Assembly: GCA_050049995.1 (NCBI GenBank)
Contig: JASFVE010000028.1
Span: 1-24,726, forward strand
Reading direction: 5' to 3'
DNA from: Chlamydiota bacterium
GTDB lineage: Bacteria; Chlamydiota; Chlamydiia; Chlamydiales; SM23-39
DNA length: 24,726 bases
The position numbers and the translations under genes were made by a program. This document shows positions 8,403 to 8,635 of this stretch, piece by piece (positions within the stretch are counted from its first letter, which is position 1; each line of letters starts with the position of its first letter). A model generated the notes under the pieces. That model was not told where the DNA came from, did no database searches, and worked only from the letters and a program-made list of their open reading frames with translations.

Positions 8403-8411
8403 AAAAAATAA

Positions 8412-8418
8412 TCCTTCT
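8412..8418 (-). promoter_or_regulatory. Shine-Dalgarno site of the MFS gene (AGAAGGA)
   Basis: Lies 9 nt upstream of the ATG at 8402 and is complementary to leader sequence 8507-8513. Confidence 0.7.
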
Positions 8419-8491
8419 AAATAATTTTTAATTTTTAGCTCTTTTAGAGCCGATTTTTAATGAATAAGATGTAAGAGAAAAAAAATATTAT

Positions 8492-8507
8492 TGTGCCTAG
8501 CGGCACA
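8492..8507 (-). promoter_or_regulatory. GC-rich hairpin over the leader-peptide stop codon (attenuator candidate)
   Basis: TGTGCC-gcta-GGCACA, followed after 6 nt by a T run on the minus strand. Confidence 0.6.
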
Positions 8508-8598
8508 GAAGGACTAGAGATAGAAGAAGAAAACCCTTAGCAGATATGCTAGAGTTTGGCATCATATATGTAAAATCTAATGCTTTTTGAATGTTCAT
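8497..8598 (-). CDS. Putative Leu-rich leader peptide MNIQKALDFTYMMPNSSISAKGFLLLSLVLLCR
   Basis: 34-codon ORF in the MFS 5' region. Six of the eight codons ending two codons before the stop are Leu (CTT CTT CTA TCT CTA GTC CTT CTG). Confidence 0.65.
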   Translation of the reverse strand: MNIQKALDFTYMMPNSSISAKGFLLLSLVLLCR

Positions 8599-8605
8599 GG
8601 CATCT

Positions 8606-8635
8606 ATAATAGCACAGCTCAAGCTAAAATATCAA
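8606..8635 (-). promoter_or_regulatory. Putative sigma70 promoter for the leader and MFS gene
   Basis: TTGATA-N18-TATTAT with a TGn extended -10. The -10 ends 7 nt before the leader ATG. Confidence 0.55.

Follow-up and report, generated by a model that had tools for sequence, protein, structure and literature searches.

A leucine-codon leader ORF conserved upstream of a transporter gene in Chlamydiota and symbiotic proteobacteria: a candidate translational attenuator of amino-acid uptake

Described leader systems and the present locus

In classical amino-acid attenuators a 1:2 pause hairpin directly follows the run of cognate codons, and the stop codon of the short leader ORF lies in or next to that hairpin. 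The leader described here was found upstream of a major facilitator superfamily (MFS) transporter gene in a 24,726-nt stretch of a Chlamydiota genome (GCA_050049995.1, contig JASFVE010000028.1; hereafter the window), and it resembles this arrangement in having a hairpin right after its leucine codon run, with the stop codon in the hairpin or adjoining it. It shares with leuL, ilvL and trpL a cognate codon run near the end of a short ORF (PMC7755916, 10.1101/834739), and differs from them in having no conserved U-tailed terminator or antiterminator; a search of the leader against Rfam returned no significant family (best E 1.6).

The closest described system in its working is that of the mycobacterial polycysteine leaderless sORFs (Ms5788A, 'Cys ribulon'), in which the sensor codons at the 3′ end of a leaderless sORF pair with the downstream Shine-Dalgarno (SD) sequence, the spacer is ~95 nt long, there is no terminator/antiterminator pair and several loci occur per genome (10.1101/834739). 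The chlamydial leader is likewise a short ORF with a cognate codon run at its 3′ end (in frame in 50 of 52 elements); its sensor codons are likewise predicted to pair with the downstream SD, the spacer is of similar length, a conserved terminator/antiterminator pair is lacking and further leaders occur in the same genome. Unlike the Ms5788A type, which senses Cys and serves biosynthesis, the leaders reported here carry Leu, Ile/Val or Thr codons and precede importers in a predicted auxotroph; they combine a 10-bp helix with a conserved hairpin over the stop codon in place of a long duplex, and they occur in Chlamydiota and symbiotic proteobacteria. A base stem between Leu run and SD is also shared with the actinobacterial LEU element upstream of leuA, although informal inspection revealed no counterpart of that element's pseudoknot and the target here is a transporter rather than leuA; the authors of the LEU element doubted ribosome sensing (PMC1262725).

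Leu-rich and Ile-rich leaders are reported for S. aureus and Listeria (PMC5794164, PMC5864092). Within the chlamydiae, the WWW motif of C. trachomatis YtgCR represents amino-acid sensing via ribosome stalling, as proposed here, but it is part of a coding gene and works in trans; the same source describes chlamydial trpL as putative, unvalidated and atypical, and credits chlamydiae with few transcription factors and with no cis-attenuator that has been validated (PMC7755916). The present leader bears on how chlamydiae tune the uptake of host amino acids. A search of the open full-text literature, by titles and the starts of abstracts and with few subscription journals covered, returned no such leaders before chlamydial or Legionella transporters. 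Comparative surveys of attenuation, reportedly by Vitreschak in 2004 and Lopatovskaya in 2010, may list them.

Anatomy of the leader

All features of the leader lie on the minus strand. A predicted sigma-70-type promoter (8606..8635) comprises a −35 TTGATA (8635-8630) and, after an 18-nt spacer, a TG-extended −10 TATTAT (8611-8606), present where an earlier note on this DNA had placed it; such a match alone is at chance level (14 sites versus 12.3 ± 3.9 in shuffles), and the prediction draws in addition on the conserved spacing between −10 box and ATG. The unannotated 33-aa ORF proposed in that note was recovered as well (8497..8598; ATG 8598, TAG 8497), ending in a Leu run, Cys, Arg and stop, with CTN Leu codons at six of eight positions in the sensor segment (8506..8529); the peptide has no match in Pfam or NCBIfam. 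A GC-rich hairpin (8492..8507) spans the leader stop and is followed by a C/U-rich, G-poor unstructured spacer (8452..8491), which is a candidate Rho loading tract and includes a T8 run (8485-8478), by a small second hairpin (8438..8450) and by the ribosome-binding region of the MFS gene (8409..8418), whose SD core AGGA lies at 8415-8412. The MFS_1 gene itself (7176..8402, PF07690), the putative regulated gene, encodes 408 aa from ATG 8402, at the previously reported distance of 94 nt past the leader stop, and a terminator scan placed an intrinsic terminator with a 12-bp stem and T tail 3′ of it (7138..7165).

The second hairpin is found in many, not all, chlamydial orthologs, with varying sequence. 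A further, local hairpin within the leader ORF (8531..8557, core 8551-8538) appears in the fold and showed no conservation in the aligned portion of the orthologs; both small hairpins had been described before and are present. The fold of the 213-nt leader has a z-score of −3.2 and beats 199 of 200 shuffles. In the minimum free energy structure, positions 8516-8507 within the Leu run pair with 8418-8409 in the MFS ribosome-binding region, and this predicted 10-bp helix, together with the covariation reported below, marks 8507..8516 as a putative anti-SD segment with the ribosome-binding region as the 3′ strand of the switch helix.

Conservation among MFS orthologs

Searching GTDB with the MFS protein alone gave 80 loci encoding proteins 61–95% identical, 78 of them with a usable start, and a Leu-run mini-ORF with an abutting hairpin was found upstream of 40 of these 78, so that the Leu-rich upstream ORFs whose conservation had been the suggested check do recur before orthologous MFS genes. 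Hosts of the element are Chlamydiota, alphaproteobacterial symbionts and Legionellales. The full set contains 52 elements at 90 loci, made up of these 40, the window and 11 non-duplicate loci from motif-first searches; pattern artefacts (L035, L044, L077) and five duplicates were left out, and L067 was re-anchored.

The leader is conserved and looks translated. Fifty of the 52 elements have an ATG in the frame of the Leu run without intervening stop, whereas the other two frames offer one in 5 and 1; of 55 pattern hits, 52 and 50 have Leu at the final two positions of the run. Third codon positions vary synonymously, CTN codons account for 220 of 235 leader Leu codons, and TTA for 6 of 235 against 37% of Leu codons genome-wide. 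The genome tRNA scan listed four Leu tRNAs (CAA, GAG, TAA, TAG), with CAG absent from the list. The leader ATG lies 9 to ~40 codons upstream, the N-terminal parts are unalignable and lengths vary widely. In the chlamydial form LLC or LLR (minor form LLS) is followed by a stop 2–8 codons on, and the proteobacterial form, LLR-stop, occurs in alphaproteobacterial symbionts, a Francisellaceae MAG and several Legionella species. Every one of the 52 elements retains the hairpin stem, which comes in four sequence forms that differ on both strands of the stem; relative to a 95% identical ortholog, the leader stop is shifted by a CAG/TAG change with the hairpin retained.

Searches that started from the motif returned largely to the same gene. 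A loose motif applied to 301 chlamydial genomes gave mostly noise (matches in 94 genomes), and among 32 hand-picked hairpin-like matches 16 precede this MFS gene (5 in already-counted genomes), 2 are Leu leaders before other genes and 14 look like chance. In Legionellales 17 of 201 genomes match, with the MFS detected downstream at 12 of 15 new loci. Metagenome motif matches (n = 16) include 15 with an in-frame leader and 10 with the MFS downstream, 4 having no downstream ORF in the sequence covered. A proteobacterial leuA element called 'LEU1' is said to exist; the proteobacterial motif did not occur before leuA in any of 301 alphaproteobacterial genomes, where its four matches were two MFS loci and two chance occurrences. 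In a genome-wide scan for a mini-ORF plus hairpin before ~1750 crude gene calls, the Leu leader ranked first of 12 candidates.

A few Leu leaders precede genes other than the MFS. At L106:1414-2498 the leader stands before a DUF2000 + YbaK/tRNA_edit operon; DUF2000 or YbaK also directly follows the MFS gene in 9 loci and lies 2.5–3 kb upstream in 2, an association with the Leu leader or MFS that may point to a connection with leucine or with tRNA charging. Other leaders precede a 190-aa protein without Pfam match (L126:1123-1913, minus strand) and, judged by eye, an apparent IS200-type transposase (L226).

Transcription start

Of 36 chlamydial-type elements, 28 have a TAnnnT box, mostly TG-extended, that ends 6–8 nt ahead of an ATG in the leader frame. 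Such spacing is found at 7.1% of 63,319 genome ATGs and at 15 of 174 nearby out-of-frame ATGs, with the per-element chance somewhat above 7% given one to three ATGs per element, and in 2 of 16 proteobacterial-type elements. On the strength of this conserved −10 spacing we infer a leaderless start for the chlamydial form and a leadered transcript for the proteobacterial one; in the window transcription probably starts at or within 1–2 nt of ATG 8598. If so, the elements would be a sign of leaderless translation in Chlamydiota.

Sister leaders and codon identity

The same genome scan placed an Ile/Val leader before BrnQ second and a Thr leader among four candidates tied third. The brnQ leader (L138, G000:C5) carries Ile/Val codons, ends IIPVVIVRLARI and has a GC hairpin. 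Pairing of these codons with the brnQ SD is predicted at −14 kcal/mol, and the modelled opening falls from 11.3 to 4.9 when the ribosome is stalled. By eye, the gene after brnQ encodes a permease resembling Mtr/TyrP. Of the 30 other top-scoring chlamydial brnQ loci, 10 have a similar leader; Ile and Val together fill 49 of the 88 last-eight codons of the 11 brnQ leaders. The Thr leader (L187/L189, G000:C21, ~6915-7044, plus strand) ends TFGTITTGSRR, carries a hairpin and precedes an SDF/DAACS symporter; 12 of the 24 close DAACS orthologs retain it, Thr making up 50 of the 104 last-eight codons in 13 DAACS leaders.

Leader codon identity therefore tracks transporter family, with Leu before the MFS, Ile/Val before BrnQ and Thr before DAACS. 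BrnQ is the branched-chain amino-acid uptake family (Pfam) and DAACS is a family that we take to include the Ser/Thr carrier SstT, so the codon type matches the substrate where the substrate is known; the DAACS symporter with the Thr leader is on this basis predicted to be a Thr/Ser transporter. Neither a LeuA-family protein nor IlvD had a match in the genome, which is 98% complete.

Pairing of the sensor codons with the MFS Shine-Dalgarno sequence

In the window the duplex between sensor codons and MFS ribosome-binding site (RBS) spans 10 bp with a predicted energy of −13.8 kcal/mol. Across the 32 chlamydial elements, pairing is stronger with the element's own RBS than with the RBS of other orthologs (−8.3 versus −7.3 kcal/mol, p 0.0005; this and the other permutation p values for pairing ignore relatedness); the preference is non-significant in the 14 proteobacterial elements (p 0.18) and in 6 elements lying 130–350 nt from the gene (p 0.31). 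With the register kept constant, four core columns pair in 29–32 of the 32 chlamydial elements. In 28 sequences below 80% MFS identity, retained after removal of 4 close relatives, four variable flanking columns hold 43 Watson–Crick pairs versus 31.6 expected (p 0.004), with p 0.33–0.96 for six slid registers and p 0.07 for an upstream control window. An own-RBS preference is also seen in the Thr family (p 0.0001), and the Ile/Val family, with five close relatives among its 11 leaders, is borderline (p 0.056); post-hairpin control segments gave p 0.93, 0.052 and 0.80 in the same test. Three codons ahead of the hairpin the encoded residue is L, V, F or I, yet the codon itself reads N-T-C in 24 of 33 cases, a minority ending genome-wide that is explained if SD pairing requires it.

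The modelled cost of opening the RBS in the window is 9.9 kcal/mol in the free leader and falls to 3.5 when a ribosome occupies the Leu run; a ribosome stalled earlier leaves it at 8.7 and one at the stop at 5.9. Across orthologs, no more than 14 of the 32 chlamydial and 6 of the 14 proteobacterial elements show a modelled drop above 1 kcal/mol, and a second output is therefore likely in part of the family. Sequestration of the SD by the sensor codons is supported by sequence comparison and modelling, the pairing being predicted at this locus and backed by covariation in chlamydial orthologs.

Proposed mechanism and alternative explanations

The best explanation of the locus, and in our judgement a fairly probable one, is a ribosome-driven translational attenuator that would turn the importer on when charged tRNA-Leu is scarce. 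Transcription would start at or next to the mini-ORF ATG, as the −10 spacing suggests, and ribosomes would load without an SD. With leucine plentiful, the ribosome would pass through and leave, 8516-8507 would pair with 8418-8409 in a predicted helix that stacks onto the GC hairpin, shutting off translation of the MFS gene; as a secondary effect, Rho may terminate the untranslated transcript on the C-rich spacer. With leucine scarce, a ribosome stalled on the Leu run would sit over both the anti-SD segment and the hairpin's 5′ arm, and in the model this opens the RBS. The hairpin may act as a polymerase pause or by stacking on the switch helix, and the leader peptide itself is probably a by-product. 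Sensing of charged tRNA-Leu with the importer switched on, as originally proposed, stands as the most likely control, given the conserved in-frame Leu run and the sister leaders. The missing LeuA and IlvD speak for a need to import leucine, and the Lrp/AsnC gene found only beside element-less orthologs, a single evolutionary event, also counts in favour. The mycobacterial leaderless sORFs are a precedent for such SD occlusion (10.1101/834739). Several points weigh against it: a CCU/AGG core match could arise independently from Leu codons and the SD consensus, the modelled switch is not universal among orthologs and the upstream control reached p 0.07, and in Streptomyces a change of similar leader codons reportedly left regulation unaltered (PMC1262725).

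A second explanation, possible but decidedly less probable, gives the leading role to Rho, which would load on the vacated C-rich Leu codons and the spacer while the hairpin pauses the polymerase, unless a stalled ribosome masks the site. The rho gene is present in the genome, and the C/G ratio is 2.9 in the Leu run and 2.8 after the hairpin of the 52 elements, compared with 0.85 in front of the 38 orthologs that lack the element; spacer ratios are 5.6 in Thr leaders and 4.5 in Ile/Val leaders, some with C7–C8 runs. Rho loading would further account for the CTN bias among leader Leu codons, for the elements far from the gene and for those without predicted SD occlusion. It leaves the in-register covariation with the SD flank unexplained, however, and a ribosome on the Leu run would leave the spacer exposed. 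Rho and SD sequestration can act together, and Rho may dominate in the proteobacterial form.

The earlier note implied that the hairpin and T run form a terminator of the leuL/trpL type, in which termination would occur unless a stalled ribosome covers the 5′ arm; we consider this improbable. The hairpin is indeed present, is kept in every element and is listed by the terminator scan, and similar ORF-over-terminator layouts are known for actinobacterial ilvB (PMC1262725). The T8 run, in contrast, begins 6 nt beyond the stem rather than directly adjoining it; at least five T occur in the 8 nt after the stem in only 9 of 52 elements, and 4 of the 52 have TTT among the first 5 nt. These tail counts speak against a conserved intrinsic terminator with a U tract, and inspection of the ortholog alignments revealed no conserved antiterminator. 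Under plentiful leucine, moreover, a closely trailing ribosome would be expected to sit over the arm, and an importer would then be regulated in the wrong direction.

Nascent peptides such as TnaC and SpeFL arrest the ribosome in response to a small molecule. That the leader peptide does likewise, or is a functional small membrane peptide, is slightly more improbable still: its C-terminal part is hydrophobic and ends recurrently in LLC or LLR, but lengths and N-termini vary freely, the run may be followed by C, R or S, the stop shifts (CAG/TAG) while the hairpin is kept, and the sister leaders swap the run to Ile/Val or Thr. Equally small is the probability of the opposite sign of control, in which fast coupled translation would keep the gene on and the MFS would be an exporter or be required under leucine abundance. 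Exporters are among the targets of Lrp-family regulators, and efflux subfamilies are among the best NCBIfam matches of the MFS, far below cut-off; against this, the same design precedes the uptake family BrnQ, leucine synthesis is absent and a stall opens the RBS in the model. A chance ORF on an ordinary structured 5′ UTR, which the chance-level promoter count would allow, is scarcely credible when frame, codons, hairpin and spacing are conserved across MFS proteins only 58–76% identical, motif-first searches return to the same MFS and the frame counts contradict chance.

Transporter identity and replacement of the leader

The MFS protein matches PF07690 (E 1e-41) and no subfamily above cut-off in Pfam/NCBIfam; no Pht model is among these matches, and the best NCBIfam ones, which include efflux subfamilies, all fall far below cut-off. 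PDB profile matches are weak (best sialin, E 4e-7), and the ESM Atlas neighbour cluster is auto-named MFSD1, a weak lead. The MFS fold and a host range of intracellular bacteria are shared with the Pht family as described in the accessible parts of two papers (PMC3920079, PMC4319460), and those parts, like that of a third (PMC6819133), make no mention of a leader peptide or of a leucine-specific member for Pht. MFSD1 is described as related to Pht and was not found to carry single amino acids (PMC6819133); Leu-containing dipeptides are therefore a live alternative substrate, and we infer an importer of leucine or Leu-peptides. This would be a substrate prediction for an orphan MFS clade that is widespread among intracellular bacteria, the orthologs being hosted by Legionella, Rickettsiales, Francisellaceae and environmental chlamydiae. 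The genome's second MFS paralog (28% identity) lies inside an operon, without leader.

Among the 38 element-less orthologs, 17 have a divergent Lrp/AsnC gene, against none of the 52 with the element; it lies ~200 nt upstream of the MFS in one leader-less Legionella clade (L042, L043, L045, L047, L054, L058, L062-064, L066, L068, L070, L071, L076, L077, L079, L080). In a FastTree phylogeny, rooted on a 26–28% identical paralog and weak in its deep branches, so that no donor is claimed, these 17 loci form one clade (support 1.00) nested in leader-bearing proteobacterial relatives, and we therefore count one replacement event, not 17. The clade would be a naturally occurring example in which control of one gene passed from an RNA sensor to a protein regulator. 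At L044:2960-3003, upstream of a Legionella-clade MFS without leader, promoter-like sequence abuts the ATG, a layout that possibly reflects deletion of the switch.

Taken across families, we give slightly better than even chances to a general scheme in which environmental chlamydiae would control amino-acid uptake through leaderless mini-ORF switches of a common RNA design, with one codon type for each transporter and sensor codons that double as anti-SD. In the same scheme the Leu switch would have travelled with its transporter among Chlamydiota, alphaproteobacterial symbionts and Legionellales, one Legionella lineage swapping it for an Lrp-type regulator. If this is true, leaders would reveal the substrates of unannotated transporters in uncultured host-dependent bacteria.

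Neighbourhood of the locus

A divergent pair of genes on the plus strand (8682-9735), encoding a FlaR-like nucleotide kinase and a histidine phosphatase, has a common intergenic region with the leader and is also found upstream in L008. Elsewhere in the window (3230-6187, plus strand; 21620-24605, minus strand), inspection by eye suggested one protein with ankyrin-like repeats and two leucine-rich-repeat-like proteins; of these two, the first has an F-box-like start. Proteins of these kinds are typical host-interaction types.
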